64,000 nt of DNA. Origin: a candidate division FCPU426 bacterium (GTDB lineage: Bacteria > Oederibacteriota > Muellerivitia > Muellerivitales > Muellerivitaceae). The stretch lies in assembly GCA_963771075.1 (NCBI GenBank), contig CAVYSE010000026.1, forward strand, positions 64,001-128,000, given 5' to 3'. Shown here in pieces: positions 3,001 to 19,800 of the stretch. The translations under genes were made by a program, and so were the position numbers. Within the stretch, counting starts at the first letter, position 1, and each line of letters begins with the position of its first letter. The notes under the pieces are model-generated. The model saw nothing but the letters and a program-made list of their open reading frames with translations. It ran no database searches and had not been told where the DNA came from.

Positions 3001-4999
3001 CACGAAGACCAGCTACGCGAACGTCGTCGACCTGACCAACGGGAAGGTCTTTTTGATCGGCCCCTGGACCTATACGGGTTCCGGCACCAGCTATTCCGTG
3101 ACCCTCAACGGGTCCGATTTCAACGTGATGACCGCGGGCGCGACGGTTTCGACCAATTTCGCGGTGACCCTGCTGGATGAGACCCAGGCCAAGACCTTCA
3201 ATTCCCTCGTGCCCACGGGCTCACCCGTCACCTTCGAGGCCCCTGAGCAATATATCAACCGTGTCAACAGCAGCCTCAGTTGCCTGACGAGCGCCGAGGA
3301 CGGGAACTGCGAGACCTTCAACTACGCTTTATACGTCAATTCCCCTTCCGGCGCTTCCGTGACGACTTACACCCGGATCGTCGACCTGACATCGGGCGGG
3401 GGGCCGGTGACGGTGAATTGCGGGGCGGTGACGGATAACGGCGGCGGGGGCACGTCGAGTTCTTACTCCCTATCGGCCCAGCAATTCGGCCTTTCCTCTC
3501 CCGGGCAGATCGCGGTTAGCCAGGTTTTCGAGGCGCTTCTCTACGCCGACGCTGGCGGTGTGACACTCTTGGACAGCTATCCGTTGAAGACCTTGAACTT
3601 GGAAACTCCCTCACCCTACATCACAGGAAGCGCCCTCACTTGCCTGACGTCCGACAGCCTAAACCAGGCCTGCCAGGTGTTCCAATTGCTCTTGAACCTC
3701 CAGGGGGCCGCCGGGGCTTACCAGACCAACTACGCCTACCTGGGCGACGCGACCAATGGGAACCGCTTGACGCTGGGTCCCTTCAGCTATACAGGGTCGG
3801 GAAGCTTCGCGGTCACCCTCAGCGGTAGGCAATTGGGCCTGGGCACCCTGGGGTTCCCCGTTTCCAGCCAACTGGCCGTGACGTTATTGAATGGGGCCCA
3901 GAACAAAGTCTTGGGGGTTTCTTTCCCCGCCGGTGGCGCCCCCGCCACCCTGGAAACGCCCCCGGGCTATATCAACTCAACGTCGCTCAACTATCAAACG
4001 AGGGCGGAAGACGGCAATTGGAATACCTTCACCTTCTACTTCAACGCCTATACCCCCGGCTCCGCCACGACCCTGGTCGGGATGGTCCTGTTGTGGGATA
4101 CCACCAACGGGAACTCCGTGACCGAGGGCCCGGTGACCTACAGCGGCAATAGCTACTCCTGGACCATCACGGCGGCCCAATTGGGGTTGGCCCCGGGCCA
4201 GGCGGCCGTCAATCAGCAAATGGTGGCCCAGTTATACGATTCCACTGGCACGAAGCTTTACGACGCCAGCACTTTGGGAGCCTTCAACCTGGAAGGTTCC
4301 GAGGACACATTAAGTTCAAGCGCGGTTACCTGCTTGACCACCGACTCGGTCAACGGGGCCTGCCAGGCCTTCCAGCTGACCCTCAACGCCAACTCCCCCG
4401 CGGGAGTTTCCCAATTGGGTTACGCCCGCGTTTACGATCTGACCAACGGTCAAAACATCCTGGTCGGGCCTTGGAGCTTCACTGGAACCGGAACGGGCTA
4501 TGCGGTGACCCTGTCGGGTTACGACCTGGGCTTCACGACCCCCAACGCGCCCGCTTCCGCCTCGATGGCGGTGACGTTCTATAACGAGGCGCAGAACCAG
4601 ATACTCTCGGTCGGCACCCCAACCGGATCGCCTTTTATGCTCGAGGAACCCCCCGCTTATATTGACTACGCGAGCCTGGCTGCCCCGGTCTCGCTCTTGG
4701 CGGAAGACGGCAACGCCACGGCCTTGAACCTCACCTTCTATGCCTACACGCCTGGTTGTACGGGCTCCCAGACGAGCCTGATCCGGCTGGTGGACACGAC
4801 CACGGGGACGGCGGTCACCCTGGGGCCGCAGACCTATACCTGCGGTAGTTGGGTGTTCCCGGTTTCGGCAAGCCAGTTCGGACTGGCTCCCGGCCAGGCG
4901 GCGGTCAGCCAGGCCTTCACGGCGGAGCTTTGGAACGCGGCGGGAACCAGCGTGTGGGATACCAAAACGCTGGGCACCTTTAACATCGAGGGACCATAA
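2..4999 (+). CDS. Giant repetitive secreted/surface protein, 5' end outside window
   Basis: Frame is open from base 2 (IENNSPSATDSLSGSTLSCFLAG...). About 6.5-7 tandem ~238-aa units (GPWTY.G...AEDGN...QQFGL.TPGQIAVSQVFEELLYADAG...LNLETPSPYL), rich in T/S/G/N, with Cys pairs. Confidence 0.85.
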   Translation: MENNSPSATDSLSGSTLSCFLAGTGGACQSLLLTLNTTATAGVTSTNYANVTDITNGKTFLAGPWTYSGNGTLPVTLPASDFSITSASPVSASFAVTLLAGNQSTVLGTSIPAGSPLSLVAPPQYIYRYPSYNNLSPLNLAEDGNWETFTFNAYLTAAASNPVTSYLKLVDQTAPGGPVTVSVGAVTASTGTIEPAFTMLSQQFGLATPGQIAVSQVFEELLYADAGGVTLLDSYPVGPTNGQTVNLETPSPYLASATLASLVTDPVNNAVQQFLLTLTADASTGVTKTSYANVADLSNGRVYLAGPWTYTGSGTSFPVTLTGENFNITTAGASVSASFAVTLLDETQSKTFNSLIPTGSPMMVEAPNQYIYRSSGYNNVACQNLAEDGNCQAFTFNAYVTGPGSGPITTYLKLVDLTASGGPVTLSFPPVTVVSFEPSYTILPQQVGLTTPGQIAVSQVFEELLYADAGSVTLLDSYPLGTLNLETPSPYLASSSILSLVKDPNNQATQQFSLTLNANAPSGVTKTSYANVADLSNGRVYLVGPWTYTGSGSSYSVTLTGENFNITTAGASVTASFAVTLLGENQTTVYNSSIPSGSPITVEAPNQYIFRSSSYSNVACQNLAEDGNCQAFTFNTYLTGPGSGPITTYLKLVDLTASGGPVTLSFPPVTVVSIEPGYTILPQQFGLTTPGQIAVSQVFEELLYADAGSVTLLDSYPLGTLNLETPSPYLGSATLSCLQSDPNNQACQQVLLTLNPVAPAGVTKTSYANVADLSNGKVYLVGPFTYAGAGSYSVTLNGFDFNITTAGAPVTANFAVTLLAENQTTVFNSLVPAGSPMTVEAPIQYLYHTTNNNLSCLTYAEDGNCETFNLNFYVDSPSGTVTTYMRLVDLSAAGGPVTANCGAVTDNGGGTDTGSFSLLAQQFGLTSPAQIAVSQVFEELLYADAAGVTLLDAYPVGSLNLETPSPYLASANLSCLQSDPNNQACQQLLLTLNAVAPSGVTKTSYANVVDLTNGKVFLIGPWTYTGSGTSYSVTLNGSDFNVMTAGATVSTNFAVTLLDETQAKTFNSLVPTGSPVTFEAPEQYINRVNSSLSCLTSAEDGNCETFNYALYVNSPSGASVTTYTRIVDLTSGGGPVTVNCGAVTDNGGGGTSSSYSLSAQQFGLSSPGQIAVSQVFEALLYADAGGVTLLDSYPLKTLNLETPSPYITGSALTCLTSDSLNQACQVFQLLLNLQGAAGAYQTNYAYLGDATNGNRLTLGPFSYTGSGSFAVTLSGRQLGLGTLGFPVSSQLAVTLLNGAQNKVLGVSFPAGGAPATLETPPGYINSTSLNYQTRAEDGNWNTFTFYFNAYTPGSATTLVGMVLLWDTTNGNSVTEGPVTYSGNSYSWTITAAQLGLAPGQAAVNQQMVAQLYDSTGTKLYDASTLGAFNLEGSEDTLSSSAVTCLTTDSVNGACQAFQLTLNANSPAGVSQLGYARVYDLTNGQNILVGPWSFTGTGTGYAVTLSGYDLGFTTPNAPASASMAVTFYNEAQNQILSVGTPTGSPFMLEEPPAYIDYASLAAPVSLLAEDGNATALNLTFYAYTPGCTGSQTSLIRLVDTTTGTAVTLGPQTYTCGSWVFPVSASQFGLAPGQAAVSQAFTAELWNAAGTSVWDTKTLGTFNIEGP

Positions 5000-5092
5000 G
5001 ACCCGTTTCAGAAAATGATAGATTGCCTGACCCGGAATGGACAAGAAAAAAGTGGAAAGATGTTGTTTAAGCCAATGAGAGGAGGATATCCG

Positions 5093-5524
5093 ATGCCATC
5101 AGACAAGAATGACGGTATGGAAGCGAATGCGACCTATTCGGTTGAAAAGTGGAAGGAGGAAAACTGGAATGTTATTTCTCCCGAAGTGAAAATGACAAAG
5201 GCTTCGGTAGAATTTGCCTTGACGGGAGAAATGGAATGCAAGGCGACCGTGGAATATCTCATGTTCTATAAAAGCTTTGATTCGAAGGATCCCCATAAAT
5301 CCTCCGCGAAATATGTTGGCATGATGAAATTGACCGGGAAAATAAACGGAAAAGCCGGGAGTTTTGCGATTGAAGATCATGGCACTTTCGAAGCAGGTGT
5401 CGCCCTTTCTAATTTGTCGATCCTGGAGGGGTCAGGATCGGGGGAATTGAGAGGAATTAAAGGAAGTGGGGAATACCGTGCCGGCCAAAATGGCAGTTCC
5501 TTTAAGTTGAATTACAATTTCTAA
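5093..5524 (+). CDS. DUF3224 domain protein
   Basis: Motifs W.E...KASV...GE.E..ATVEYLM.Y and G..GSF..ED.GTF...I..GSG.GEL.GI.G.G; AGGAGG SD before ATG 5093. Confidence 0.8.
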   Translation: MPSDKNDGMEANATYSVEKWKEENWNVISPEVKMTKASVEFALTGEMECKATVEYLMFYKSFDSKDPHKSSAKYVGMMKLTGKINGKAGSFAIEDHGTFEAGVALSNLSILEGSGSGELRGIKGSGEYRAGQNGSSFKLNYNF

Positions 5525-5835
5525 AATTCTATTGTTTTTCTCCTTCCACGATGGGGATCCATTTTTTGCGGCTACCCATGGAATGCTTTTTCCCCGAAAC
5601 AACAGGTTTAACGCGATTCACTTCGGAAGAGTCGTTTTCTGAGGAAACGATAGCATTTGTTTTCGACTTTAAGGGGATGAGGGAAGACTTTTCAGTACCC
5701 GGATAAACCCGCGGTTTGAATAGGGGATATCTCTTCCGTTCATATAAAAAAATAGATAAAATTTTAGAATCGGAAATCGTACTTTTCCCATCTCCACCAT
5801 CGATTCATTCTGTGACTTTTGATGAGGAGTATCGG

Positions 5836-7070: not shown

Positions 7071-8963
7071 GTGTTTTGCTTTGTCCTGGTGGCCCTATTA
7101 GGCATGCGAAAAACCGCGGCTTATGACCTGGGATTTCACCTTAAGGGCGGCCAATGGATCGCGGAACACCACCAGGTGCCCCTCACGGATACCTATACCT
7201 ATAGCGCGCAGGGCAAACCCTATGTGGATTCCCATTGGCTTTACCAGCTCGCCCTTTACGGCCTTTACCGGACAGGGAGTTATGAATCCCTTACCCTGGC
7301 GCATGTTGCCTTGCTCCTGTGTGTTTTTTGCCTGTTGGCCCTCCGTTGCCGGGTTTCCCATGCTCCCGCCTGGGCGACGCCGACTCTCCTGGCAGGGGCG
7401 ATTTTCATCATGGAAAGAAGGTTCATGGAGAGGCCGGAAATCCTTTCCTGGTTATTGCTGGGGGCCACCCTTGGGGTCATGGAAAACCAAGGCCGCCTCG
7501 GTAAAAGGACACTGTGGCTTTTGCCCTTGATCCAACTGTTATGGGTCAATATTGAGGGCCTGTTCGTATTGGGCTGGATCGTCCTGGGAGCCTATTGGGC
7601 GGACGCTTGGTGGGAGCGAAAGAAGCCCGATGCCCGGCTTACCCTTATCCTGGCCCTTTCGATAGGGGCGGATTTAATCAATCCCAATTTCATTTGGGGC
7701 GTCGCCTACCCCTTTTCCTTCATCTCAAAGCTGCAGGGTGACATCTACAACCAAACCGTGATGGAACTGCTTTCCATCCCCGGGTTCCTGTCCAATTCGG
7801 GCTTCGCGAGGGATTCCAAAGGATTCATCTATGTGTTTTTTCTTTATTTTTTGCTGGTAATCCTGTCCCTGGCCCTCCAGAAGAAAAAAGCACCTGAAAT
7901 CCTATTAGCTGCGGCCTTCTTTTATCTTTCCTTTAAGGCGGTGCGCAACATTCCCCTGGCTATGATCGTGACCCTGCCCACCGCCGTCCTGGGTTTGAGG
8001 GAATTGCATGGGAGGTTTGGGGCCTGGTTGGCAAAGGCCCCCTCCCTCGCAAAGGTTAGGGAGGGCATGCCATTTTCCAAGGCGGTTGGATGGGGTATCC
8101 CCTTTTTGGCCGCCTTGTGGATCGGCCTCTGGGGCTCGCGGGTGGCCACCAACGCCTATTACCTCTCCGATGTCCGGCCGGAACAATTCGGTTTGGGGCT
8201 GGATAAGGGTAAACTTCCCGTTGAGGCATCCCTTTACCTCACGCGAGAGGGGCTGGACGGCAAGGTTTTGAACTCGCCGAATTTCGGCGGTTGGCTGGAG
8301 TGGACCCGAAACCTGCCCGTTTATATGGACGGCCGGTGGGAGGTGATGGGGGACGACCTTTACCGCCGTTATCTCGATATGACCTTTTCCAACGGGCAGG
8401 CCATGGGCGGGGTCAGCGCCGAGTTGTTCAACACGAAGGCGGAGATCGTCGTTTTCGATCCCCGGACCGAGTCTTCCTGGATCGCGCAGTTGAAGAACCT
8501 TCCCGCCTGGCGCCTGGTATACCTGGATGATTGCGCCGCCATTTACCTCACCAGGGGCTACCGGGACGATCTGCCTGAACTGGATTGGGACAGGATGGTC
8601 TCATCCAGCGGGCTCCATCCTGTGACCCAGCGGGACCTGGTGGAGGGGATGGGCGGGTTGGGAACGTCCGAATTCGGCTATTGGTTGGAGGGCTTTTACC
8701 GTCCCCGGACATTCCCCTGGGGACTGCTTAACCGAAGCCTTCTTGCCATGGAATATCAAAGGCGGGACGCGCAAATGTCATTGGACCTGGAAATGGTCCG
8801 CCGAACGGATGGTTTTTACCGTCCCTTTTTGGATCTGCTGGTCCAGGATTGTATCGATCAAGGCAACAAGGCGGGAGCCCGGCTGGGGTTACAGCGGATC
8901 CTGATGTTGGACCCGGGCGACGCAAAAGCCCAAAGGGATTTTTATTCGCTTTCATCCCCGTGA
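7071..8963 (+). CDS. Polytopic membrane protein, GT-C/ArnT-like N-terminus and TPR-like C-terminus
   Basis: D.G.HL..G.WI...P..D.Y.Y first loop, RPE motif, many TM segments, YMDGR.E motif. True start may be upstream at about 6999. Confidence 0.65.
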   Translation: MFCFVLVALLGMRKTAAYDLGFHLKGGQWIAEHHQVPLTDTYTYSAQGKPYVDSHWLYQLALYGLYRTGSYESLTLAHVALLLCVFCLLALRCRVSHAPAWATPTLLAGAIFIMERRFMERPEILSWLLLGATLGVMENQGRLGKRTLWLLPLIQLLWVNIEGLFVLGWIVLGAYWADAWWERKKPDARLTLILALSIGADLINPNFIWGVAYPFSFISKLQGDIYNQTVMELLSIPGFLSNSGFARDSKGFIYVFFLYFLLVILSLALQKKKAPEILLAAAFFYLSFKAVRNIPLAMIVTLPTAVLGLRELHGRFGAWLAKAPSLAKVREGMPFSKAVGWGIPFLAALWIGLWGSRVATNAYYLSDVRPEQFGLGLDKGKLPVEASLYLTREGLDGKVLNSPNFGGWLEWTRNLPVYMDGRWEVMGDDLYRRYLDMTFSNGQAMGGVSAELFNTKAEIVVFDPRTESSWIAQLKNLPAWRLVYLDDCAAIYLTRGYRDDLPELDWDRMVSSSGLHPVTQRDLVEGMGGLGTSEFGYWLEGFYRPRTFPWGLLNRSLLAMEYQRRDAQMSLDLEMVRRTDGFYRPFLDLLVQDCIDQGNKAGARLGLQRILMLDPGDAKAQRDFYSLSSP

Positions 8964-9065
8964 GAAAAGGGGACATCCTAGTAAAGTGTTGAGTGTTGGC
9001 CTGGCCCTAATGTTTCCCACCGTGGACAACCTTTCGATTCCAAAAAGTTAAAACATCCGGGTCGA

Positions 9066-9323
9066 TCAGCCGGTCTTCTTCAGTCCCAATTTATGCTCGA
9101 TTTTGCGGACGCGTTCTTCCAGGGTTAAATTTTCCGACATCGAGCGCTTTAAAATCGAGTTCATGAGGGTTTGGTATGGGATTCCTTGTTTTTTCCCCTC
9201 CTCGATAAGCCAATGGTAAACAGTCTCATCCAGCCGGAAGGTTTTCTGAATCTTAGAACCCTTGGAAGCCAAAAGAGGGCCTCTATGAACCTTGGCTTTT
9301 GAAAAATCATATTCTTTTTTCAT
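9066..9323 (-). CDS. BrnA-family antitoxin
   Basis: MKKEYDFSKA...TFRLD..V..W...GIPYQTLMN pattern; overlaps the 3' end of a BrnT-like gene. Confidence 0.85.
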   Translation of the reverse strand: MKKEYDFSKAKVHRGPLLASKGSKIQKTFRLDETVYHWLIEEGKKQGIPYQTLMNSILKRSMSENLTLEERVRKIEHKLGLKKTG

Positions 9324-9579
9324 AGTTTTCCCGTTCCTTTCTTGTGGCTTTCCTGGCCGAGATGATTCGGATGACATCCATTTCCCGGTACGCGTAAACC
9401 ACCACCAACAGGTTTAATTTCTTTGAATACCCAAGCGCGATGAATCTTTGTTCGTGGTGTTCAATATCTTACAACACCAATTGAACGTCGGATTCCAAGA
9501 CGGATTGGGCCTCTTCAAACGAGACCCCATGTTTTATTAGATTGGAAGCGGCTTTCCGGGGATCCCAAATGACGAGCAT
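9307..9579 (-). pseudogene. BrnT-family toxin with in-frame TAA at 9469-9471
   Basis: Manual translation MLVIWDPRKAASNLIKHGVSFEEAQSVLESDVQLVL*DIEHHEQRFIALG...IRIISARKATRKERENYEKRI. Confidence 0.85.
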
Positions 9580-9591
9580 GAATCAAGTATA

Positions 9592-9618
9592 AACTACGTT
9601 GTAGTTACATTGCAATGT
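9592..9618. promoter_or_regulatory. Palindromic operator-like sites upstream of brnTA
   Basis: AACTAC-gtt-GTAGTT and perfect ACATTGCAATGT just upstream of the toxin start. Confidence 0.45.
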
Positions 9619-9627
9619 GTTCTCCCT

Positions 9628-9690
9628 GTCCACGTTGGGTCCCCGCCATGTAGCATGCGCTTGCGCTTAGCTACATGGCCCGTCGTGGAC
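9628..9690. repeat. GTCCAC...GTGGAC palindromic inter-module repeat (long form)
   Basis: gtccacgttgggtcccc-[gccatgtagc...gctacatggc hairpin]-ccgtcgtggac. Confidence 0.8.
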
Positions 9691-9700
9691 GACTTTTTCA

Positions 9701-10012
9701 TCACTCGAAAGCGGAATCATCCAAAAGACGAGACCCATGAATGATCCGAAGAATATAAACCGTTTTTTGGGAGATCCGGAAAATCGTCCTGTAATCCCCA
9801 TACAAGATATGCCGATAGGCCGTCCCTAATACTTCATTTTCCGGAACAGAAGGGCATCTTTCCGGGTAGTGCTCCAAAGTGGTGATTTGTTGTTCTATTC
9901 TAGAGATGAACTTTGCCGCTTCCCGAGAACTGTCCTTGCCAATAAAATCCCAAATTTCCCTCAAATCCCCTTCGGCGGTTCGGGTGATCTTAACCTGGTA
10001 TCGAATGGGCAT
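9701..10012 (-). CDS. RelE/ParE-family toxin
   Basis: YQVKITRTAEGDL.EI..FI...YR.I...YR.IFRI....VYILRIIHG.R pattern. Confidence 0.9.
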   Translation of the reverse strand: MPIRYQVKITRTAEGDLREIWDFIGKDSSREAAKFISRIEQQITTLEHYPERCPSVPENEVLGTAYRHILYGDYRTIFRISQKTVYILRIIHGSRLLDDSAFE

Positions 10013-10274
10013 GCATGAACTCTTTCAAGAAGGCGCGAACGGGACGCACGCGGTGGGCTGTCACGTCTTTCTCGGCGGAAACAAGTTCGCGGGCAAGATT
10101 CACCGCGCTCAAATAGACTTCATAGGATTTTGAGTTCATCAATACGGCGTCAGCTTTTCCATTTACGGTTAACACAACGGGACGACCGGTCCGGTGGATT
10201 TGGTCCAATAGACTGCGGGTGTTTCGCTTCAAATCGGTCACCGACCGGATGTCCTCGGAAAATTTAATTCCCAT
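9990..10274 (-). CDS. Phd/YefM-family antitoxin
   Basis: DIRSVTDLKRN...P.VLTVNGKA.AV pattern; overlaps toxin start; inverted repeat TTAAGCA...TGCTTAA at 10291-10314. Confidence 0.9.
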   Translation of the reverse strand: MGIKFSEDIRSVTDLKRNTRSLLDQIHRTGRPVVLTVNGKADAVLMNSKSYEVYLSAVNLARELVSAEKDVTAHRVRPVRAFLKEFMHAHSIPG

Positions 10275-10352
10275 AGCCGCCCCCCTTAGCTTAAGCATCT
10301 AATGTGGTGCTTAATTTAGCATCATTCAACCAAGGCTTCAACCCCTTAGGTA

Positions 10353-10378
10353 GTCCACGATGGGTCCCCGTCGTGGAC
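10353..10378. repeat. GTCCAC...GTGGAC palindromic repeat (26-bp core form)
   Basis: gtccacgatgggtccccgtcgtggac. Confidence 0.85.
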
Positions 10379-10392
10379 AGCTAAACTTTAGT

Positions 10393-10965
10393 TTATTTGG
10401 CCATTTTTTGTTTGAGCTCGTCGACGAATACTTGAGCTTTTTTATTTCCGTGATTGGCGGCCTTCTGAAACCATTCCATCGCTTCTTGCTCGTCCTTTGA
10501 GACTCCAAGACCCTGGTAATATAAAAGACCTATATTTCCTTCCGCATCAGAGTTTCCTTGGATAGCGGCCATTCGAAAATACTTCAACGCTTCTTGGTAA
10601 TCCTGGGTTGTTCCATGTCCAGTTAAATAAAGACCGCCAAGCGAGTTTTCGGCTTCCGGGTTTCCTTGCGCAGCTGATTTTTGATACCACTCGATGGCTT
10701 TTTGATAATCTTGATTAACCCCTTTTCCGCTTTCATACATGAAGCCAATAGCGTTTTCGGCTCTATCGTCCCCTTGTGTGGCGGCTTTTAGAAACCAATT
10801 CATAGCCTGTTGATGGTCTTGAGCGATCCCATTTCCCCCGGCATAAGCCAAGCCAATATTGAACTGGGCTTTACGGTTCCCCTGATTTGCGGCTTTTAAA
10901 TTCCATTGGAAGGCTTTTACATCATCTTCATGAACTCCATGACCCTTACTGTAAAGACCTGCGAA
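10393..10965 (-). pseudogene. Sel1-repeat protein, N-terminus lost at the transposon end
   Basis: Sel1 repeats (A..WF.KAA.QG...A...IG..Y..G.GV..D) continue in frame upstream of 10851 (FAGLYSKGHGVHEDDVKAFQWNLKAANQG) up to the GGGGTCA terminus. Confidence 0.75.
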
Positions 10966-11028
10966 ACAACGGGGTCAAACAACGGGGTCACCTATGAAAA
11001 AGAATGTCCAGGCAAAAGCGTAGTATCA

Positions 11029-11173
11029 CGGCCCCAAGTCCAACCTGAGTCTCAAAGGACTACAAGTCAGTCACCTATTCGCGGTTGTTTCACCGCACGA
11101 TAACGTTGGACCCGGCCGCTCAATCAGGCCAAGGACCTCAACTCTTGCGGGTTGTGTCAGACCCCGTCGGAGC
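11029..11173 (-). ncRNA. Predicted bridge (seek) RNA of the IS1111 element
   Basis: Two stem-enclosed loops carry segments matching the target (gaccccgt, tcaggcc) and the circle junction (gataac, tcacctat). Ends approximate. Confidence 0.75.
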
Positions 11174-12179
11174 TGGCCGGGCAGTCCTCAAAAGCTTCCT
11201 TCTTTCGTAACATATGAAAGATGCTTTTCAGCATAGCCCTTGCTACTGCTATTCGTCCCGCGTTATTCCCATGCTTCTTCTTCACCCTCGTGTATAAGGT
11301 CCCATACCGTCGGGTTTTGCGAATGGCATGAAGCGAGTTCTCAACCAATATCCAGCGAATCCATTTAGAACCCTGTTTGGTGATGTGGCCGTTGTGGCTT
11401 TTTCCCCCTGATGCGTGAACACTGGGGACCAATCCACCATAAGAACATAGATGTTCCGCGTCCGGGAACCGGCGAATATCCCCAATCTCGCTCAAAATTA
11501 ATAAAGCCGAAAAGGCACCCACGCCTGGCATGGTCATCATCAGCTGGGCTTCCGGGCTTTCTGCTGCCATTTTCTTGATCACCTCTTCTGATTTGGCGAT
11601 CTCTTGGCCTAGTTCCCGGATTACTTCCATATATCCGTCCAGTTCCAAACGGTAGCAAGGCCGGGTACCTACCGTGGCAAGTTCGCGGAAGTTCTTTATT
11701 CCGAATCGGTTTTTAGTAACGGGTTCGATTCCCGCCTTGGTCATGACCGAAGTCATCCGGTTTTTGGCTTGTGTTCTCAATTGCACCAGGGAAGCCCGGT
11801 ACCTAAGGATTTCCCGTAAGTCGCGGATCTCTCGGGGTGGCACATAGGCTCGTGGCAGCAGATCCACCCGCAAAAGTTGAGCCAGGATTCCCGAATCAAT
11901 TTTATCCGTCTTGATCTTGGCCGAGGCTATGGCTTTGACCTTTTGGGGGTGGGCCAATACCAGGTTGGGGAATCGATCCTCGATGAGTTCGTAAAAGTGA
12001 TACCAATGACCTGTGGCTTCTACTACGACCTGGCTACTCACGGGTTGCTTCTTGAAATAAGCCTTTAAAGTATCCGCGTCGTTCTTCAGATCGACTTGTT
12101 CCAGCACCTTTCCTTTCTCATTCACTCTCGTGACGTAGGATGTTTTCTGGTGTAGGTCTACTCCGATATACTGTCCCAC
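11157..12179 (-). CDS. IS110-family recombinase/transposase
   Basis: DEDD residues in GVDLH, VVEATG and KTDKID; C-terminal TMPGVG...GLVP....SGG domain. Confidence 0.95.
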   Translation of the reverse strand: MGQYIGVDLHQKTSYVTRVNEKGKVLEQVDLKNDADTLKAYFKKQPVSSQVVVEATGHWYHFYELIEDRFPNLVLAHPQKVKAIASAKIKTDKIDSGILAQLLRVDLLPRAYVPPREIRDLREILRYRASLVQLRTQAKNRMTSVMTKAGIEPVTKNRFGIKNFRELATVGTRPCYRLELDGYMEVIRELGQEIAKSEEVIKKMAAESPEAQLMMTMPGVGAFSALLILSEIGDIRRFPDAEHLCSYGGLVPSVHASGGKSHNGHITKQGSKWIRWILVENSLHAIRKTRRYGTLYTRVKKKHGNNAGRIAVARAMLKSIFHMLRKKEAFEDCPASSDGV

Positions 12180-12421
12180 GGCTGCACCTCCTAAGCGTTT
12201 TGCACCACCTGCAAAGGTGAGTGCCTTTTCGACTCTGGGTTTATCCTAGAGCCTCGTCCCACTTAAGTGGAGACGCTCTACGCTTGGAGCTCTGCAGCCT
12301 TTTTCATGTTATCAGGTCTTAATTTTATATTATCTATCCGCGCTTTGAACCGCGTCTCTCCCTCCATCCGCTTCTTTATTATCGCTATCCGGTTCCCCAC
12401 GGCCGAATATTTTACACCAAA

Positions 12422-13261
12422 TTATTCCGCGATCTCTTTCAGGCCCAGGTGCGCTCTTTTTCGAAGTAGGTACATACCAACGTCCCTCGCCTCGTTGGCC
12501 TTGTGGAACTTAGTCGTGATTTCCTTTTCCTCAACCTTATATGCTTTCGAGACCTTTTGGATAACATCTTCCGCCGTACGTTTCTCGATCCGATGGTGTT
12601 TCATCGGTATTTCCGGGTCTTTCTTATCCAACAACCCCTTTAATTTCTCCTTTAGACCCTCACCCCCGTAATAAACCCCACCCTCCATCTTTTCCCATGG
12701 CGATTCCTTTTTTCGCAACCCTTCCAATACGAACTTCCGATAGGCTCTTTGGGCTTGCTTGGATTGCCTGCCAAATTGCCCCAATACCCAATCCACCTCA
12801 AACCAAGGTTCTTTCTTCTCGATCCCGGCCGTCGCCCGATAGCTGCTCCACTTCCATTTCCGGGGATGTTTCACCAACCGCGCTCTTACCGGGTTCAAGA
12901 CCACATATCGGCACAACTCCAACAAATGGGTTCCCTTTTCCACATGGATCGCCTTATAACGGCCTTGAAAGAGATGCCCTACCCGGTTATTCCGTCGATT
13001 GAATTTCTGGGTATAAACACCATTCAGGTGCCGTATGGCCCGTGACAAGTTGGCTTCCGGCGTCTCCACCAACAAGTGGTAATGATTATCCATCAATACC
13101 CAGGCATGGCACATCACATGATGATCCTCCACGACTTGGGCCAATACCCACAAAAACAATTCCCGGTCCTTATCCGACCGGACAATGTTTTTCCGCTCGT
13201 TCCCCCGCGAGGTAACGTGATAAACAGCGCCTTCATAATGCACTCTTAACGGTCTAGCCAT
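12422..13261 (-). CDS. Y1 HUH transposase (RAYT-like) with C-terminal DnaA_C/TrpR-like HTH, probably truncated by a nonsense codon
   Basis: YHVTSRGN, LMDNHYHLL (HUH), GHLFQGRY, YVVLNPVRA. The HTH continues after the TAA at 12422 (EIAE*FGVKYSAVGNRI...). Confidence 0.88.
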   Translation of the reverse strand: MARPLRVHYEGAVYHVTSRGNERKNIVRSDKDRELFLWVLAQVVEDHHVMCHAWVLMDNHYHLLVETPEANLSRAIRHLNGVYTQKFNRRNNRVGHLFQGRYKAIHVEKGTHLLELCRYVVLNPVRARLVKHPRKWKWSSYRATAGIEKKEPWFEVDWVLGQFGRQSKQAQRAYRKFVLEGLRKKESPWEKMEGGVYYGGEGLKEKLKGLLDKKDPEIPMKHHRIEKRTAEDVIQKVSKAYKVEEKEITTKFHKANEARDVGMYLLRKRAHLGLKEIAE

Positions 13262-13377
13262 TTGCGGATCTTATCACAAAGATAATATAAAATGAAGACC
13301 TGACCCCGTTTCGTGACCCCGTTTCGCAAAATATGGATTCCATCGGCTAGAGAAAGGCATGCCTTTTCTTTAAAAAA

Positions 13378-13704
13378 TTAAACAGTAACCTTCCCACCGT
13401 GTTTAAATTTGAATCCAATCTCTAAATCTCCCCCGCAAGCTGTTGCGATGTTAGAAAGCAACGGTAACGAGGTATCGCGTTGATCTGTGCCACTTTCAAT
13501 TCGAGCAATCGCGCTTTGCGAGGTTTTAATCTTTTTAGCCAGACCCTGTTGACTCAAGCGAGCTCTCAATCGCGCCATTTTAACAATCTGGGCAATTTTA
13601 GATTTGGCTTTATTTTGCTCATAATAAAAACGAACCTCCGGATCTTTAATCAACTCTTTGAAAAAAGAGTCGGCGGATTCGTGGTATTTTTTGTTTGTCT
13701 TCAT
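13378..13704 (-). CDS. HigA-like XRE HTH antitoxin
   Basis: R....LSQ..LA....TSQSAIARIE HTH, directly downstream of a RelE-like toxin. Confidence 0.85.
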   Translation of the reverse strand: MKTNKKYHESADSFFKELIKDPEVRFYYEQNKAKSKIAQIVKMARLRARLSQQGLAKKIKTSQSAIARIESGTDQRDTSLPLLSNIATACGGDLEIGFKFKHGGKVTV

Positions 13705-14033
13705 GGCAAGACCTCTTTCATTCTTTTTTCGGCTAACCAAAGGTCGTTCTTTGGCGTCTTTTGAGTCGTCTTTTTAAAAACGTGTAACCAGATCATAAAA
13801 TTTTTATCAACCAAAACGTAAGCAATCCTGAATCCTCCACTAGGCGCAGAAAACTTTATTTCCCAAAGTTTTCCACTCAAAGATCTAAAGATAACGTCAT
13901 GGCAGTTTAACCCTTTGTCTTTTATCCCTTCATAAACATCTACAAAGCGGGCCTGATTCACTTTGGATAAATCTAAAATATATTCTTTAACGGGTCGGCG
14001 CCCTGATGGGGTTTTGTAATAATCGATTTACAT
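13701..14033 (-). pseudogene. HigB/RelE-like (Gp49-type) toxin with TAA at codon 2
   Basis: ATG TAA ATC GAT TAT... reads M*IDYYKTPSGRRPVKEYI, in frame with LWEIKF...FRIAY...LHVFKKTTQKTP; operator-like IR atatccagttggatat at 14043-14058. Confidence 0.8.
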
Positions 14034-14222
14034 ATTTAGATTATATCCAGTTGGATATTATTATCAATCCGGAAATTCATCAGGTCCTTGTTATGCTTAA
14101 TGGTTCGATCATTATATTTCGGTAAAGCTACAGGAAAAGGTTCAGAAAGTATTGAGGACCAGGTGCACTACTAAAATGCAGGTTTAGGGTTATCCACGAC
14201 CCCCAAAAGGGCCTTGGGGGTC

Positions 14223-14271
14223 GTCCACGATGGGTCCCCATTCGACGAGCTCATGGCAGGCCGTCGTGGAC
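14223..14271. repeat. GTCCAC...GTGGAC palindromic repeat (intermediate form)
   Basis: gtccacgatgggtcccc-attcgacgagctcatggcagg-ccgtcgtggac, preceded by a related hairpin tccacgaccccc...gggggtcgt (14193-14224). Confidence 0.8.
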
Positions 14272-14319
14272 AAGCCGAACCCTAAAATATCGAGACTGAT
14301 TTGCGTCATGGTTAGCCTA

Positions 14320-15282
14320 TCATCCCTTTTCGGTGTCAACACCAGATACCTTTACAACCGCCCGCCAAAGGGCGTCCTGATTTGCGCGATCATGAATATG
14401 TTCATGGCGCATGATCTCAATGGGACCTGTCATCTTTTTTGGGGGCGAGCAAAAGAACTTGCCAGAAACATCGACGCCAAACTTTGAGGCCGTGAGGTAT
14501 CTTTTGGCCCCTTCATCGACGGAATGTGACATTCCGGGAATAAGTTTCGAAATCCGCACAAATACGTTCTTCATAACAAAACCTAGATTGCGAGGCGCCA
14601 GGGTATCTGGAGCGGCTCCGGGTGAAACTGCGTATACGGCCAAGTCCGCGGGAAGCTTTCGAGCAAGGGCCGCGGCCCACCACGCGACAAATATTTTAGC
14701 ATCCGAGTAAGCCGTGCTAGCCTTGTATTTTACATTCGGGGAACTGCGCAAAATCGCTTCGATGGCTGAAACCCGGTCGCCTTTGTACTCTTTCGCGGCG
14801 AATGCCGCCAAGCCGGTAAATTGAAACATGGGTACATCACCTCGCGCGGGTTCCGCGCTGGCAATAACGATACGAGCATCCGGCGCCAGACGTCCGGCCT
14901 TTAAAAGGCCCAGGGTCAATTGATGATGACCGATCAGAGGCGCTTGCGACGCTTCAATGTTCTCACTTGTCACAACACGTTCTTTGCCTGGCATCATGCC
15001 AGCGTTCAGAAGGAGAAAATCTATGGGTTCGTCTTGGGCGTCTGGCTTTCCTAGCGAGGCGACCGCCTTCTTCACGCTTGCGAACGAATCCAGGTCGAGG
15101 GCAAGACCGGCGATATTTTTAGTTCCGGCATCGGTTTTTAACCTGCTAACGGCTTCATCCACTTTGGCCTGGCTACGTCCAGTGGCTATCACCTGACTCC
15201 AGCCATCCATGGCAAGCTGCTTGGCCGCCGAGTATCCTAAACCAGACGTAGCGCCGGTAACGAGCGCGACACCCTTTTTCAT
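14320..15282 (-). CDS. SDR family NAD(P)-dependent oxidoreductase
   Basis: VALVTGATSGLG, LLLNAG and YSDAK (YxxxK). Confidence 0.9.
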   Translation of the reverse strand: MKKGVALVTGATSGLGYSAAKQLAMDGWSQVIATGRSQAKVDEAVSRLKTDAGTKNIAGLALDLDSFASVKKAVASLGKPDAQDEPIDFLLLNAGMMPGKERVVTSENIEASQAPLIGHHQLTLGLLKAGRLAPDARIVIASAEPARGDVPMFQFTGLAAFAAKEYKGDRVSAIEAILRSSPNVKYKASTAYSDAKIFVAWWAAALARKLPADLAVYAVSPGAAPDTLAPRNLGFVMKNVFVRISKLIPGMSHSVDEGAKRYLTASKFGVDVSGKFFCSPPKKMTGPIEIMRHEHIHDRANQDALWRAVVKVSGVDTEKG

Positions 15283-15330
15283 AGTTTGTCTCCTAAGTCT
15301 AAAATTGTGGGAATTTCACAAATCAATTAT

Positions 15331-15391
15331 TGTAGTATACGCTACAGAAAATCCAAACCGCTGTCAAGCGATATTGTTGCGGTTGCTACAA
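15331..15391. promoter_or_regulatory. Two TetR operator-like palindromes between divergent SDR and TetR genes
   Basis: tgtagtatacgctaca and tgttgcggttgctaca share TGTwG...GCTACA. Confidence 0.55.
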
Positions 15392-15430
15392 TAAGATTGT
15401 CCAAAGTTTTTCGTGCGAGTAAAATGGGGC

Positions 15431-16018
15431 ATGAGTCGAAAAATAGAATTTAATTACGCTAATGCGGTGGATCGAGCGATGCGGGTCTTTTGGGGTGAGG
15501 GATACTCCGGCGCATCACTCAGAGACCTTCTCAAGGCGATGAAAATTGGGGAAGGCTCCTTCTACAATGCCGTCAAAAGCAAAAAGAAGCTCTACATCGA
15601 ATGCTTGAATCGATATGGAGAGGTCGAAGGCAATAAAAGAATTTTGGCCCTAACCTCAGCCCCGAATGCGCGTCTCGGACTGCGGGCTATGCTAAGCGCA
15701 ATGTTCGATTGTCTCGATGATCCGAAGAATCCGTCATCTCTTTGCATGATTGCGGCAATGATTTCCGGAGATGTCATGGCTGATAGCGAATTAAAGAAAG
15801 TCGCTATTGCCAGTGTCGATCAAGCTAAAAAGTTAATTGAAGATAAGATTGATGATGACAAAAAAGCTGGACGTCTTCCTAAAAGCTTTGACTCCCATAC
15901 AGTTGCTGGCGTCATAGTTACCTACTATCAAGGCATTTGGCGCATGGCCATGGTTTCATACAAAAGGGAACAGTTCGAGCGCGAATCAGAGGCATTTCTT
16001 CGAGGTTTGGGTCTTTAG
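15431..16018 (+). CDS. TetR/AcrR family regulator
   Basis: AM.VFW..GY...S.RDL..AM.IG.GSFYN...SK..LY HTH. Confidence 0.92.
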   Translation: MSRKIEFNYANAVDRAMRVFWGEGYSGASLRDLLKAMKIGEGSFYNAVKSKKKLYIECLNRYGEVEGNKRILALTSAPNARLGLRAMLSAMFDCLDDPKNPSSLCMIAAMISGDVMADSELKKVAIASVDQAKKLIEDKIDDDKKAGRLPKSFDSHTVAGVIVTYYQGIWRMAMVSYKREQFERESEAFLRGLGL

Positions 16019-16206
16019 GTTTGGAATTCCTGAATCACACTGATGCTCCAACTTCCAAGTCAGTCAGCAACACTTCGTCTACCGTTTCTTTGAAACGGTA
16101 GCGACCCAATCATGCACCTCGCCTAGTGGGCTCGGCGCAGGACGGGCTTATATAGCCCTTCGTCCGAAGTGAAACAAGAAAATTAGTACTAAAAGTCTTT
16201 TTTCTT

Positions 16207-16232
16207 GTCCACAAAGGGTCCCCGTCGTGGAC
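16207..16232. repeat. GTCCAC...GTGGAC palindromic repeat (26-bp core form)
   Basis: gtccacaaagggtccccgtcgtggac, flanked by ctt/aag. Confidence 0.8.
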
Positions 16233-16258
16233 AAGGTAAAACTGAGAATAGTATTATT

Positions 16259-16526
16259 TTAACCTTTTAAACGTCGGGCTCTTTTATTCCAGAAATAAGC
16301 AAAAGTAAATTTATATCCAACAAAGAAGAAGCGCAATCACAAAAGACTTAATCGAAAGAATTTCCTTATTGAAAATAAACACAAGCAAATAAAACAGGAG
16401 AGCAGCCTGTGTCCCGAAAAAAGGTGTGATTTTCAATAAAAGGGCATTATCAATAAATTGATCTTTTGGAGGTCGCATCTTAATTAAAGGCCACCAACCC
16501 CAATCCATGTCGGTAAGATTATTCAT
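16259..16526 (-). pseudogene. Small membrane protein, frameshifted
   Basis: MNNLTDMDWGWWP..MRP start; a plausible C-terminus YKFTFAYFWNKRARRLKG lies in another frame. Confidence 0.5.
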
Positions 16527-17449
16527 TGAACCGAAAACATCCGGGGAAGGAAGATACCTTCATCCTCGATTTTTGGAACGAGCCGAACGAGATACAACGA
16601 TCTTTCCAACCCTATTACGAAGATTGCACGGTGGATGAACCGGCGGACGCCGACAAGCTTTATGAAGTCCAGGCCAAGCTGAATGACTACCAAATTTATT
16701 TCTTGTCTGAGGTCGAGAATTTCTGCAAAGTTTTTTACAAGAGCAAGACCATGCAGGAAACCCGCGACCATGCCCAATTGAACGCCTTCTTGGACCCGGC
16801 GGTGGAAAGGTTCAGGCAAAAAGAAGAGGAAACCCAAGAAATATTCAAGAAAGACCTAATCAGTTACCTGCGGCTTTATTCCTTCCTCGCCCAAATCATG
16901 CCTTTCCAGGATTCGGATTTGGAAAAGCTTTATGCCTATGGCCGGTTTTTGCTCCTCAAACTTCCCAAACGAACTACCGAACGTTACGCCTTTGGAGATG
17001 AAGTGGCCTTGAAATATTACCGGTTACAAAAGACCATGGAAGGAAGCGTCGCTTTAATCGCCCATGAGGGTGGGATCGTCTATGGGGCGGATGAGGTGGC
17101 TACGGGCCAAGAGAAGAATGAGAAGGTTGAGCTTTCCAAAATAATCGAAATATTGAATGAACGTTTTGGCACTGATTTCAAACCAGCCGACGCCCTTTTC
17201 CTTGAGCAGGTGAAAGAAGATGCGATTGCGAATGAAGAATTGATGAAAGTCGCCCACGCTAATAACGACATCAATAATTTCGGCCTTGTGTTCAAAAAGG
17301 TCTTGGAAGGCTTTTTCGTGGAACGCATGGACCAGAACCAGGAAATCTTTGAGAAGTTTATGGAGAACAACGAATTCCAGAAATTGGTCACGGATTATTT
17401 GATGAAGCAAGTTTATGACGGTATTCGGACAAAAGAAAAAAGTATTTAA
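16526..17449 (+). pseudogene. hsdR: C-terminal fragment of type I restriction endonuclease subunit R
   Basis: LNRKHPGKEDTFILDF.N....IQ.SF.PYY and LS.II..LNERFGTDF motifs; nuclease and helicase parts absent; no hsdM or hsdS in the window. Confidence 0.8.
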
Positions 17450-17617: not shown

Positions 17618-19800
17618 CTAAATTCTTTTCAAGCGGAAGAGCGCGCAATGGTAGGCCTCCGGCGAGGAGACGGGCTGGAACGATCGGGGAAGCCAGCCTT
17701 CCTTCATCAGGGTATCGGAATTGAACCTTTTCCCCTCTTCCTTTATCTCATAGTAGGAATCGGGTGCCAGGCCCCGGAGCTTGATCGGTTTCGCCGGGCC
17801 CTCCAAAGCCTTGATCTGGAATATAAAGAGAAGAGCTTCCTTCTGGTCCTGGCTGGTGAACATCCAGGAAGCGCGGGAAGAACCATAGGGCGCCTCCAAA
17901 CGATGGTAGTCACCGAACTGGACGATGGGCCGGATTTCCTTGTAAAGGGCGATATAGCCCGCCAGGTCCTCGCGCTCCCGAACGCTCCACTTGGAAATAT
18001 CCGCTTCCACGCCCATGTTAGCCGACATGGCTAAAAGCGCCCTCCATTTCAGGGGGCTTTCCCTTTTGGCGATATGGCTGGGGGAGGAGCCGATATGGGA
18101 ACCCTGGGTTACGGCGGGATAACCGTAGGTGGTGCCGTATTGGATGAAGAGCCGGTCCAGCCCATCCATGTTGTCCGAGGACCAGATCTGGGGCTGGTAG
18201 CTCAGGATTCCCAGGTCAAAACGGGCGCCTCCTCCCGCGCAACCCTCGAAGAGGGTGTCGGGAAAACGGTGGTTGAAGCGTTCCATCAACTCGTAGACAC
18301 CCAGGCAATAGCGGTGGTAAACCTCGCCCTGGCGGCCGGGGGGAGCGCGGGGCTGCCCGCCTCGGTGAGGGCCCGGTTCATGTCCCATTTCACGTAATCC
18401 ACGCGCCCCTCGTCCAGGACCCGGCTGATGGTCTCGAAGAGATAGTCCCGGACCTCCCCGCGGGACATGTCCAACACCAACTGCCAACGGGCGGTTTTGC
18501 GCTCCCGGTTCGGGACGTGCAGGCACCAATCGGGGTGCTTTTCGTAGAGCTCGCTCACCGGCGAGACCATTTCGGGCTCGATCCAAAGGCCGAACTTGAG
18601 GCCCAAGGCGTGGATCTCCCGGGCCAGACCCTGGATGCCCTGGGGCAATTTACGGGTGTCGGGAAACCAGTCCCCCAAAGAGCCGCTGTCCTTGTCCCTC
18701 TTGCCGAACCAACCGTCGTCCAGAACCATCATCTCGATTCCGGCCTGGACGGCGCTTTGGGCGATCCGCAGGATATCGTCCCGATTGAAATTGAAATAGG
18801 TAGCTTCCCAATTGTTCAAAAGGGTGGGGCGGGTCCGGGCGGCCCAATTACCCCGGCAAACGCGCTCCCGGATGAAGGGATGCAGGGCCTGGCTCAAGGG
18901 CGCGAAGCCCTTCGCCGAATAGGTGGTGACGCATTCGGGCGCGGTGAAGGTTTCCCCCGGCCCCAAGAACCACTTGAAGCCGAAATCGTTCAAGCCCATG
19001 TTCAGCCTCAGCCAGCCCAGGTGATTGACCTCGGCTTCCAACAGCCAGTTGCCGCTATAGGCCAGTTGGAGGCCGTAAACCTCGCCGCTTTCCTCGTCCG
19101 CCCCGCCGCGGACCAACATTACGAAGGGGTTCATGTCATGGGAAGAGATGCCCCGGCGGCTTTCCAAGCGCAGGGTGCCTTGGAGGAGGGGTCGTTCCTG
19201 AAGCGTGCGTTCGCGGGCCCAGGCGCCGCCAAAGCTCACCATGCGGTATTCACCGGAGGGAAGGTCCAAACCCAGGGAAGCGAACTTCAAAACTTGAATG
19301 GATTGGTTCCCAGAATTCCGGATCCTGCTCCTGCGGACGAGGACATTGCGGTGGGGATAGAGGGTGTAGAAAAGGTCGATTTCCAGGCCGGTGGGCTTGT
19401 CGCCCAGGGTGACGCGCAGGGTTTGGGCCTTGTCTTCCGGCTCGGTGCGGGAAGAGGGGAGGCCGGGGAATTCCGGCTTGTGATCGGAGATATCGTGGGA
19501 GAGGTATTGGAATTCGGTGATCCGGGAACCGTCCGCCAATTCCACGATGAAAGCGGGACAGCGCAGGTCGTTATGGCCGAAATCGGCGAATTCCCGCCGA
19601 AGAAGGTCCAGGTTGGCGTTGGGACTGCGGTCTTGAATGGACCGCTCCCATTCCTCCAGCCGTTGATTTTCCTCAGCGTTGGAAAGGATGGCTCCCCAAT
19701 GGAGGTGGCCCAGCCCGCCCAAGGGGTTGACGGCGAGGAGAAGGGTCGAATCCCTTGAGTCCAACCGGAAGGTCTGGGAGGCGGCATTGAATTGGATCAT
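17618..19800 (-). CDS. GH36 alpha-galactosidase, split by one frameshift near 18340
   Basis: LLNNWEATYF, VLDDGWFG, FGLWIEPEMV and YVKWDMNR in ORF 18286-19800; EGCAGGGARFD and WSSDNMD in ORF 17618-18586; shift at the G6 run 18338-18343. Confidence 0.9.

Follow-up and report, generated by a model that had tools for sequence, protein, structure and literature searches.

A palindrome-bounded array of exchangeable gene cassettes in an uncultured soil bacterium, with a short serine recombinase as candidate enzyme

The array and its repeated site

The window analyzed here is a stretch of 64 kb (contig CAVYSE010000026.1, positions 64,001 to 128,000, assembly GCA_963771075.1) from the genome of an uncultured soil bacterium (4.39 Mb in 28 contigs, here G000). 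Between positions 9002 and 16526 it holds a row of small gene modules separated by a repeated palindrome. The palindrome, the gene cassettes that it bounds, and a short serine recombinase that is the candidate for moving them are the subject of this text. Four copies of the site, GTCCACGAY-GGGTCCCC-RTCGTGGAC, lie in the same orientation on the plus strand. Searched with up to three mismatches, the left 17-mer matches six times in the window, namely at the four sites and at the reverse reading of two 26-bp palindromes; shuffled windows average 0.31 matches, and a count of six is reached in none of 100.

The modules between the sites were assigned by Pfam and lie on the minus strand except where stated. 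The leftmost is a BrnT/BrnA cassette (9066-9579), in which BrnA (9066-9377) is intact and BrnT (9310-9579) is broken in translation by one in-frame TAA (9469-9471). It is followed, between sites 1 and 2, by ParE (9701-10012) and Phd (9990-10298). The stretch between sites 2 and 3 contains a 5'-truncated Sel1-repeat gene (10393-10962; Pfam match to Sel1 at 10393-10851), an IS110 element (10977-12316, transposase at 11157-12179), an abutting Y1_Tnp+DnaA_C element (12312-13310, open reading frame (ORF) at 12422-13261), and a HigBA-type cassette with an HTH antitoxin (13378-13740) and a Gp49/HigB-type toxin (13701-13961). An SDR gene (14320-15282) and a TetR gene (15413-16018, plus strand) lie between sites 3 and 4. 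Beyond site 4 there is a small ORF of 71 aa without a Pfam family (16311-16526), to the right of which no closing site was found. These assignments agree with the modules outlined by an earlier reading made from the letters of the window alone (the sequence-only reading), save that its single Sel1-to-HigBA module is probably two cassettes. The IS110 and Y1 elements inserted there, which truncated the Sel1 gene, are secondary intruders outside the system, with six further near-identical copies (99-100%) and one 99% copy, respectively, elsewhere in the genome.

In its basic form the site is a 26-bp dyad, GTCCACGAY GGG-TC-CCC RTCGTGGAC, in which two arms of 12 bp enclose the non-palindromic centre TC. 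It often extends to 28 bp (13-2-13) through a flanking T...A, and the 28-bp form can also be read as 11-6-11. Site 2 (10353-10378) is the plain 26-bp form, GTCCACGATGGG TC CCCGTCGTGGAC, and site 4 (16207-16232), of the same length, has a rare left half, GTCCACAAAGGG. Site 1 (9628-9690) is a 63-bp form composed of GTCCACGTTGGG TC CCC, a G with a 33-nt hairpin (9645-9678), and CCCGTCGTGGAC. Site 3 (14223-14271) is a 49-bp form with 23 extra nt at 14240-14262. The sequence-only reading had given the same coordinates for these four copies, and had also noticed a right half-site at the left end of the array. The half-site is real, and an ungapped alignment places it in a 26-mer at 9002-9027 (plus strand), TGGCCCTAATGT TT CCCACCGTGGAC, a terminal hybrid with a good right half (CCCACCGTGGAC), the centre TT and an unrelated left half.

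The different lengths had been taken for a variable centre. The 63-bp form is instead the 26-bp site with one fixed 37-bp insertion (G, 33-nt hairpin, repeated CCC), which occupies the same position, after GGG-TC-CCC, in all 13 copies in the genome; most sites have no insert. Elsewhere the insertion is present as one diverged copy in a genome of the same genus and in none of 29 other family genomes. The BrnTA junction that is site 1 in the window is a plain 26-bp site in three relatives (G020, G004, and G008), and the insert is therefore regarded as a miniature element of recent origin, specific to the genus, that has the site as its target. The extra 23 nt of site 3 have an identical position, and their 3' part appears to resemble that of the 37-bp insert.

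Among 47 sites with both arms, the innermost pair (position 9/18) is T/G in 15, T/A in 13, C/G in six, C/A in five, A/G in five and otherwise composed in three, and no covariation between the arms is found. Since the two arms vary independently, their pairing is not under selection; neither the T-G mismatch, proposed earlier as a conserved feature, nor the idea of sites recombined as single-stranded hairpins is borne out. Folded as DNA, the site forms a hairpin of -8 to -10.7 kcal/mol. None of the four window sites scores in a scan for intrinsic terminators, and Rfam gives no match to the site, permissive thresholds yielding only a chance tmRNA fragment within the IS110 element. The sites differ from attC sites in being mostly 26-bp dyads, in having arms without covariation, and in owing their longer forms to one fixed insertion. 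The description of the locus as a co-oriented, cassette-like array on a non-attC repeat holds.

Cassettes as units of exchange

Counted with at most two mismatches to either half, and with gaps of up to 6 kb allowed within an array, the genome contains 101 copies of the site, of which 87 lie in arrays of 2-14 sites that together occupy 2.57% of it. The sequence-only reading had asked whether copies cluster in arrays, and they do. The pattern that it had set against itself, copies scattered after core genes with no turnover of modules, is not what is seen; modules turn over, and homology ends inside the repeat. Orientation is almost always uniform within arrays, which occupy accessory regions, the median site spacing is 1288 bp (range 325-5660), and more than 12 chromosomal loci carry such directly repeated sites. 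The 64 cassettes contain 139 ORFs, and 108 of these (82% of residues) are encoded on the opposite strand relative to the site orientation, with a median of 30 nt from the stop codon to the conserved right half and of 60 nt from the start codon to the left half. Like those of integrons, these cassettes are co-oriented, compact and promoter-poor. The canonical right 17-mer is present in 88 of the 101 sites and the canonical left half in 64, the other left halves being either of a second type, GTYCAMTSC, or unrelated; about half of the sites are perfect dyads.

In nine other arrays, the 141 ORFs include 23 toxin-antitoxin parts, nine group II intron reverse transcriptases, two IS110, one DDE and one Y1 transposase, and 84 ORFs without a Pfam family. 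Among 30 other genomes of the family, 25 (from 15 of its 17 genera) contain the exact 17-mer core of the site, as does the sole genome of the sister family; none of 67 genomes that represent the phylum's 21 remaining families does. With one mismatch, the core is present in 22 of 24 family genomes.

Individual cassettes of the window recur among these relatives. The BrnTA cassette (9016-9645) is found at 84-88% identity in G020, G021, G004, and G008; it lies between two full sites in G020, G004, and G008, and the G021 copy is cut by a contig end. In all four, the homology passes through the right half of the terminal hybrid at 9002-9027 and stops at its centre. The Phd/ParE region (9679-10380) is 80-89% identical in G001, G003, G024, and G012 and ends at sites, and the SDR and TetR genes recur with site 4 at 87-91% in G014, G044, G006, G004, and G002; the rare left half GTCCACAAAGGG accompanies this cassette in G004 too. 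The HigBA-type cassette has a 76% homolog in G041. Altogether, 16 loci in 11 genomes carry a BrnTA, Phd/ParE, or SDR+TetR cassette at 80-91% identity, whereas the flanking core alpha-galactosidase gene reaches only 68-76% identity, even within the genus. At none of the 17 loci compared in relatives are two window cassettes adjacent.

The boundaries of exchange are seen in 45 alignments of arrays between genomes (at least 300 bp and at least 75% identity, the recombinase gene excluded), in which 79 of the 180 alignment ends are no more than 30 nt from a site centre, although only 2.8% of positions are that close. Two recent exchanges are especially sharp. Between G004 and contig C21 of G000, a cassette of 1675 bp shows 96.2% identity, from after position 10 of the upstream left half to before position 3 of the downstream right half, and the outer halves and flanks are unrelated; the two copies have in common the upstream right half and a rare left half, GTCCAATGCGGG, at the downstream site. 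A 444-bp cassette is 98.9% identical between contig C28 of G000 and G024, and its homology begins exactly at TC, the left halves differing up to the base before it. Together, these two cases place the crossover inside T-C-C-C. Hybrid junctions vary right up to TC, as in GCC/TC, GGA/TC, and TC/AGG. At the level of sequence comparison, the alignments demonstrate both that cassettes are the unit of homology between genera, at 80-99% identity and with homology extending from one site centre to the next, and that the array is one of cassettes exchanged at the site centre.

A further cassette stands alone outside the array, at 5017-5569, in the opposite orientation (minus strand). It carries a DUF3224 gene (5015-5524, plus strand), which has the usual polarity relative to the site, and is bounded by two hybrid junctions, one with a right half only (5544-5569, minus strand; GCAAAAAATGGA TC CCCATCGTGGAA) and one with a left half only (5017-5042, minus strand; GTCCATTCCGGG TC AGGCAATCTATC). 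Both junctions retain TC, as GGA/TC/CCC and GGG/TC/AGG, from which it follows that the target and the cassette site had little in common beyond TC. The solo cassette looks as would be expected of a circle inserted into a non-canonical target. An empty counterpart was not found: DUF3224 homologs in G018, G021, G009, and G046 have no sites, and the flanks are not syntenic in G001-G003.

At its right border the array meets an ORF without a Pfam family (16526-17449) and a GH36 alpha-galactosidase gene (17618-19800, minus strand). The latter consists of two overlapping ORFs of 322 and 504 aa and is probably a frameshifted pseudogene, since G001 has one intact gene of 748 aa. The orthologous locus in G001 has no array, and 1.3 kb with a hemolysin-III-like gene lies there between the same membrane-protein gene and the intact alpha-galactosidase gene, vs. 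8.9 kb in the window. As a precise empty site this locus was rejected, its identity being only ~70%. Promoter-like hexamers precede the HigB-type gene (14067-14040, minus strand; TTGATA-16-TATAAT, 11 of 12 matches) and brnT (9586-9615, minus strand; 9 of 12 matches), which suggests that the toxin-antitoxin cassettes carry promoters of their own. As for the two intruders, the Y1 element has its own terminal repeats, of the GACCCCGTTTCG type, unrelated to the cassette site. IS110 adjoins the same ~91-nt Y1_Tnp+DnaA_C element end (12317-12407) in three of its seven copies, the window copy included, and may thus target that terminus.

Other elements accompany the arrays elsewhere in the genome. 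A group II intron (RVT_1+GIIM, ORF of 529-543 aa) is present in 10 copies with identical reverse transcriptase domain scores, all inside arrays, on contigs C2, C3, C4, C5 (for instance at 78845-79486), C6, C9, and C21, and none in the window. At 13 or more places a common intron end (ATCGTGCCAGCGAAGG...) directly adjoins a site, to the left or to the right of the palindrome, and an eleventh reverse transcriptase gene, of a different kind, is located at C3:168539. Genes for ParB_N/HTH_ParB-type proteins of ~690 aa lie within 3 kb of a site at seven of 13 loci in G000. They form the right-hand array end, in terms of cassette polarity, at five arrays of G000 (C3:2104-3570, C13:520-2463, C9:13-1536, C21:1008-1646, and C6:90024-90749) and two of G002 (L087:8847-10916 and L090:8191-10269). 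Five G000 sites share one common right flank, which at three of them leads into a ParB_N-type gene; the protein could be cargo, an anchor gene or an accessory factor. Past the window, the last ~6 kb of contig C26 (138331-144443) are mirrored, the plus-strand sites at 138331, 139260, and 140546 being repeated by minus-strand sites at 143711, 142782, and 141488. The mirror reflects either a true inverted duplication centred on an intron end or an assembly artefact of the fold-back kind.

Candidate enzyme and competing explanations

A tyrosine recombinase or HUH enzyme acting in trans had been proposed by the sequence-only reading. All eight tyrosine recombinase genes of the genome (PF00589) lie more than 25 kb from any array, and its 20 Y1/HUH genes, of which 16 have no site nearby, include none with sites on both sides, which speaks against both. 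A search of the genome for an integron integrase (TIGR02249) gives 11 weak matches, the best of which scores 41.8 bits where the cut-off is 265. The 141 ORFs inside the nine other arrays include no recombinase of any kind, and neither do 44 ORFs that flank six arrays of G002 and G008.

The sole PF00239 gene of the genome, at C8:80002-80835, encodes a serine recombinase of 277 aa, with PF00239 at residues 13-159 (E 5.4e-22) and PF07508 (Recombinase) at residues 189-272 (E 2.6e-11). The protein ends right after the Recombinase domain, without a zinc ribbon or coiled coil. Five full-length orthologs from four genera (272-278 aa), in which the motif YVRVSSKEQ is invariant, have a common C-terminal end, and their dN/dS of 0.08-0.16 indicates that the protein has been kept in this short form; with longer paralogs (512-570 aa), the alignment is confined to residues 8-273 of the query. 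An AlphaFold2 model from a five-sequence alignment is too poor for a fold search (mean predicted local distance difference test score, pLDDT, 58.8; predicted template modelling score, pTM, 0.41), and a sequence search of solved structures matches only catalytic domains (3guv, 3bvp, and 6dgc). Homologs from other phyla (46-57% identity) show no repeated palindrome within 2.5-kb flanks.

A site or half-site closely follows the gene in all seven genomes that carry it. Measured from where the protein match ends, the site centre is 31 nt away in G000, G044, G021, and G046, 34 nt away in G024, and 84 nt away in G004; in G020 a half-site, a hybrid with the left half only, follows at 77 nt. Further co-oriented sites lie downstream of the gene in G000, G044, G004, and G024, and in G024 the 444-bp cassette described above is the first after it. 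Three 5'-truncated copies in G000 retain the same gene-site junction, one of them beginning at a site-like ...GGG TC CATCGT... and two at nothing recognisable. Upstream of the gene are ArdC, DUF2958, HTH, and DUF6166 genes, which are typical of conjugative elements (plasmids or integrative and conjugative elements, ICEs), and a RadC gene lies just past the array. The four genomes richest in exact sites (G021 with 56, G044 with 51, G000 with 41, and G004 with 37) all carry the gene or a fragment of it, which is only a tendency, because the four are related.

That no integrase gene is present in the window, as the sequence-only reading had stated, is correct for intact genes. Immediately to the left of site 3, however, tblastn and nucleotide alignment uncover what remains of the final ~37 codons of a recombinase gene of the G004 type (14074-14184, plus strand), a relic that contains a stop; site 3 is a recombinase-proximal site. 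Its translation is 57% identical over 37 aa (E 2.5e-5), and nucleotides 14116-14241 are 81% identical to the 3' end of the G004 recombinase gene together with hairpin and site (E 1.4e-28). The hairpin, a GC-rich element between relic and site (CACGACCCCC...GGGGGTCGT, 14192-14222, plus strand), is conserved with G004. The G004 counterpart (L030:2336-2372) lies between stop codon and site and reads CACGACCCC(C)AAAAGGG.C..GGGGGTCGT; the lineage of G000, G044, G021, and G046 has a different small palindrome in its place, CAGTA-N-TACTG. This hairpin may be a terminator or an accessory binding site.

The palindrome has the features of a serine recombinase crossover site, namely the 12-2-12 organization, the asymmetric TC, breakpoints within T-C-C-C and hybrid junctions that retain TC. 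On balance, and as far as sequence can indicate, we lean towards regarding the palindromes as double-stranded recombination sites that bound mobile cassettes of one or two genes, probably moved by the 277-aa serine recombinase; we infer both the identity of the enzyme and its cut at TC. A recombinase dimer would bind each 26-bp site, and two sites would synapse. All four strands would then be cut at TC with a 2-nt stagger, half of the complex would rotate, and the ends would be rejoined. Between directly repeated sites this would release a circular cassette bearing one site, which could enter any other site, and the non-palindromic TC would fix its orientation, explaining the uniform polarity of the arrays. 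The array in the window may have been built in this way beside a recombinase gene whose later decay left the relic.

Several points count against the serine recombinase. Close orthologs occur in only six of 30 other family genomes, and the assemblies of the array-rich G002, G003, G008, G041, and G018 (9-29 exact sites, 89-99% completeness) have no PF00239 gene; either their arrays persist without the enzyme, in the manner of attC clusters that have no integrase, or it resides on unbinned elements, or another enzyme does the work. All genomes compared are metagenome bins, one per species. The adjacency of gene and site would be equally expected if the recombinase were only the integrase of an ICE-like element that targets the sites. 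The breakpoint interval T-C-C-C also fits a tyrosine recombinase with a 6-bp spacer (11-6-11), and the contrast between a conserved right and a variable left half recalls the XerD and XerC arms. Part of the stretch is present in 14 runs of public reads. Contigs of runs X1, X2, X6, and X7 aligned to 8800-16600, and of X7, X12, X1, and X4 aligned to 9560-10680, contain no joints and are uninformative on circles or deletions. Every "loose end" at a site belongs to a contig whose match is confined to the site alone (27-31 nt) or to the repeated 63-bp form, and these are other copies in the community.

Much of this would be accommodated if another enzyme present in every member of the family, for instance a Xer-type tyrosine recombinase of the host acting on an 11-6-11 site, moved the cassettes, and the serine recombinase only integrated an ICE-like element at an abundant site. 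We regard such a division of labour as unlikely, although the five array-rich genomes without a PF00239 gene, the conjugative neighbours of the recombinase, the T...A flanks of the 28-bp site, the inequality of its halves (88 vs. 64 of 101) and the breakpoints all agree with it, and the site already serves as a landing pad for the group II intron and the hairpin insert. The eight tyrosine recombinase genes are all more than 25 kb away from any array, and the sites are direct repeats over many loci rather than a single dif locus. About half of them are perfect dyads, which would suit a homodimer. The junctions, moreover, vary up to TC on both sides, so that a 6-bp overlap would be largely non-identical between partners, a situation that tyrosine recombinases tolerate poorly.

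Two further explanations dispense with a dedicated recombinase of either kind or return to the integron itself. The palindrome might be passive or regulatory, such as a repetitive extragenic palindromic (REP)-like element, a transcript-end hairpin, or a ParB-like or other binding site, with cassettes reshuffled by homologous recombination over 26 bp. Its ability to fold, its position a median of 30 nt after stop codons, the closeness of sites to seven of 13 ParB_N-type loci (within 3 kb, five of these loci forming right-hand array ends) and the habit of mobile introns and insertion elements of targeting REP-like repeats lend this some appeal, but it is improbable. With 87 of 101 copies confined to 2.6% of the genome, the sites are not scattered behind core genes, none in the window scores as an intrinsic terminator, and Rfam does not recognize them. 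The arms do not covary, and no Y1_Tnp gene is flanked by sites, as would be the case for REP elements and their associated tyrosine transposases (RAYTs). Half-sites always segregate with their own flank, and exchange driven by homology is excluded because junctions break at TC even where one partner was no site. A very divergent integron, with short attC sites served by an unrecognized IntI, would share the array layout, cassette size, polarity, and toxin-antitoxin-rich cargo of sedentary chromosomal integrons and of attC clusters without an integrase, and yet is scarcely credible: the best TIGR02249 match is far below the cut-off, 26 bp is below the length range of attC, the near-perfect dyad lacks the unpaired features of attC, and the longer site forms are secondary insertions.

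Comparison with known systems

Of the known recombination sites, those of the serine invertases and resolvases are the closest in form. Hin binds 26-bp sites and cuts them at the centre with a 2-bp overhang, and the hix and gix sites of Hin and Gin, as well as site I of resolvases, share with the palindrome the 26-bp dyad, the central 2-bp crossover, and an asymmetry that sets polarity (PMC1904230; PMC4817059). These systems invert or resolve one fixed segment with the help of an enhancer or accessory sites, whereas here some 100 sites per genome bound exchangeable cargo. The candidate enzyme has the Recombinase domain of large serine recombinases in place of the small helix-turn-helix domain of the Hin/Gin type.

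Other systems resemble the arrays in the way that cargo accumulates. In the staphylococcal cassette chromosome elements (SCC/SCCmec), the serine recombinases CcrAB or CcrC insert circular cargo at a short site, and tandem elements accumulate between copies of it. These elements, however, measure tens of kilobases, occupy one locus (rlmH) and depend on full-length enzymes with zinc ribbon and coiled coil, whereas the cassettes described here measure 0.3-5.7 kb, lie at many loci and would depend on an enzyme that stops after the Recombinase domain. The pdif modules and Xer-exploiting elements are likewise small modules, often toxin-antitoxin pairs, with 28-bp sites that have one conserved and one variable arm. 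By contrast, pdif sites alternate in orientation on Acinetobacter plasmids and Xer-exploiting elements use the single dif locus, while the present sites are repeated in one direction at more than 12 loci of the chromosome, with junctions that vary up to the central TC. The Tycheposons of Prochlorococcus use tRNA genes as attachment sites and mostly carry a tyrosine recombinase on each element, and have no dedicated palindrome between single genes. They too are reported to gather cargo modules at recombination hotspots by site-specific integration (10.1101/2020.12.28.424599).

The likeness to integrons and to clusters of attC sites lacking integrases (CALINs) is the most extensive. Both have co-oriented, compact cassettes of one or two genes, many of them toxin-antitoxin pairs with promoters of their own; a recombinase gene at one end of some arrays and none at many others; a susceptibility to mobile introns and insertion sequences; and exchange between lineages at the level of the cassette. 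The machinery differs throughout. Integrons depend on the tyrosine recombinase IntI, which is missing here, where the candidate is a serine recombinase. An attC site is 57-141 nt long and is recombined as a folded single strand, with imperfect R''-L''/L'-R' pairing and extrahelical bases, and it lies at the 3' end of its cassette, whereas the present site is a double-stranded dyad of 26-28 bp that is split between the two cassette ends. The candidate recombinase gene converges on the cassettes, and the intI gene diverges from them.

To our knowledge, integrons are so far the only dedicated system for the capture of single-gene cassettes, based on one enzyme family and one unusual single-stranded site. 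In searches of full-text literature, the coverage of which does not extend to subscription journals, no system of gene cassettes moved on a palindrome by a serine recombinase was found. We consider it an evenly poised question whether the arrays represent a second, independently evolved "integron", in which a whole family would trade cassettes at a 26-28 bp palindrome cut at TC by a minimal enzyme of 277 aa, with cassettes landing beside its gene and passing between genera at 96-99% identity. If so, gene-cassette platforms have evolved more than once, and current integron finders overlook a class of accessory-gene stores in soil bacteria. If an enzyme of this size acts on a symmetric 26-bp site and needs none of the directionality domains found in phage integrases, it would offer a very compact means of inserting and excising DNA. 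The arrays also provide a testable handle on the spread of toxin-antitoxin and other small accessory genes among uncultured lineages. Compared with the integron, the system gives the same genomic outcome from unrelated parts.

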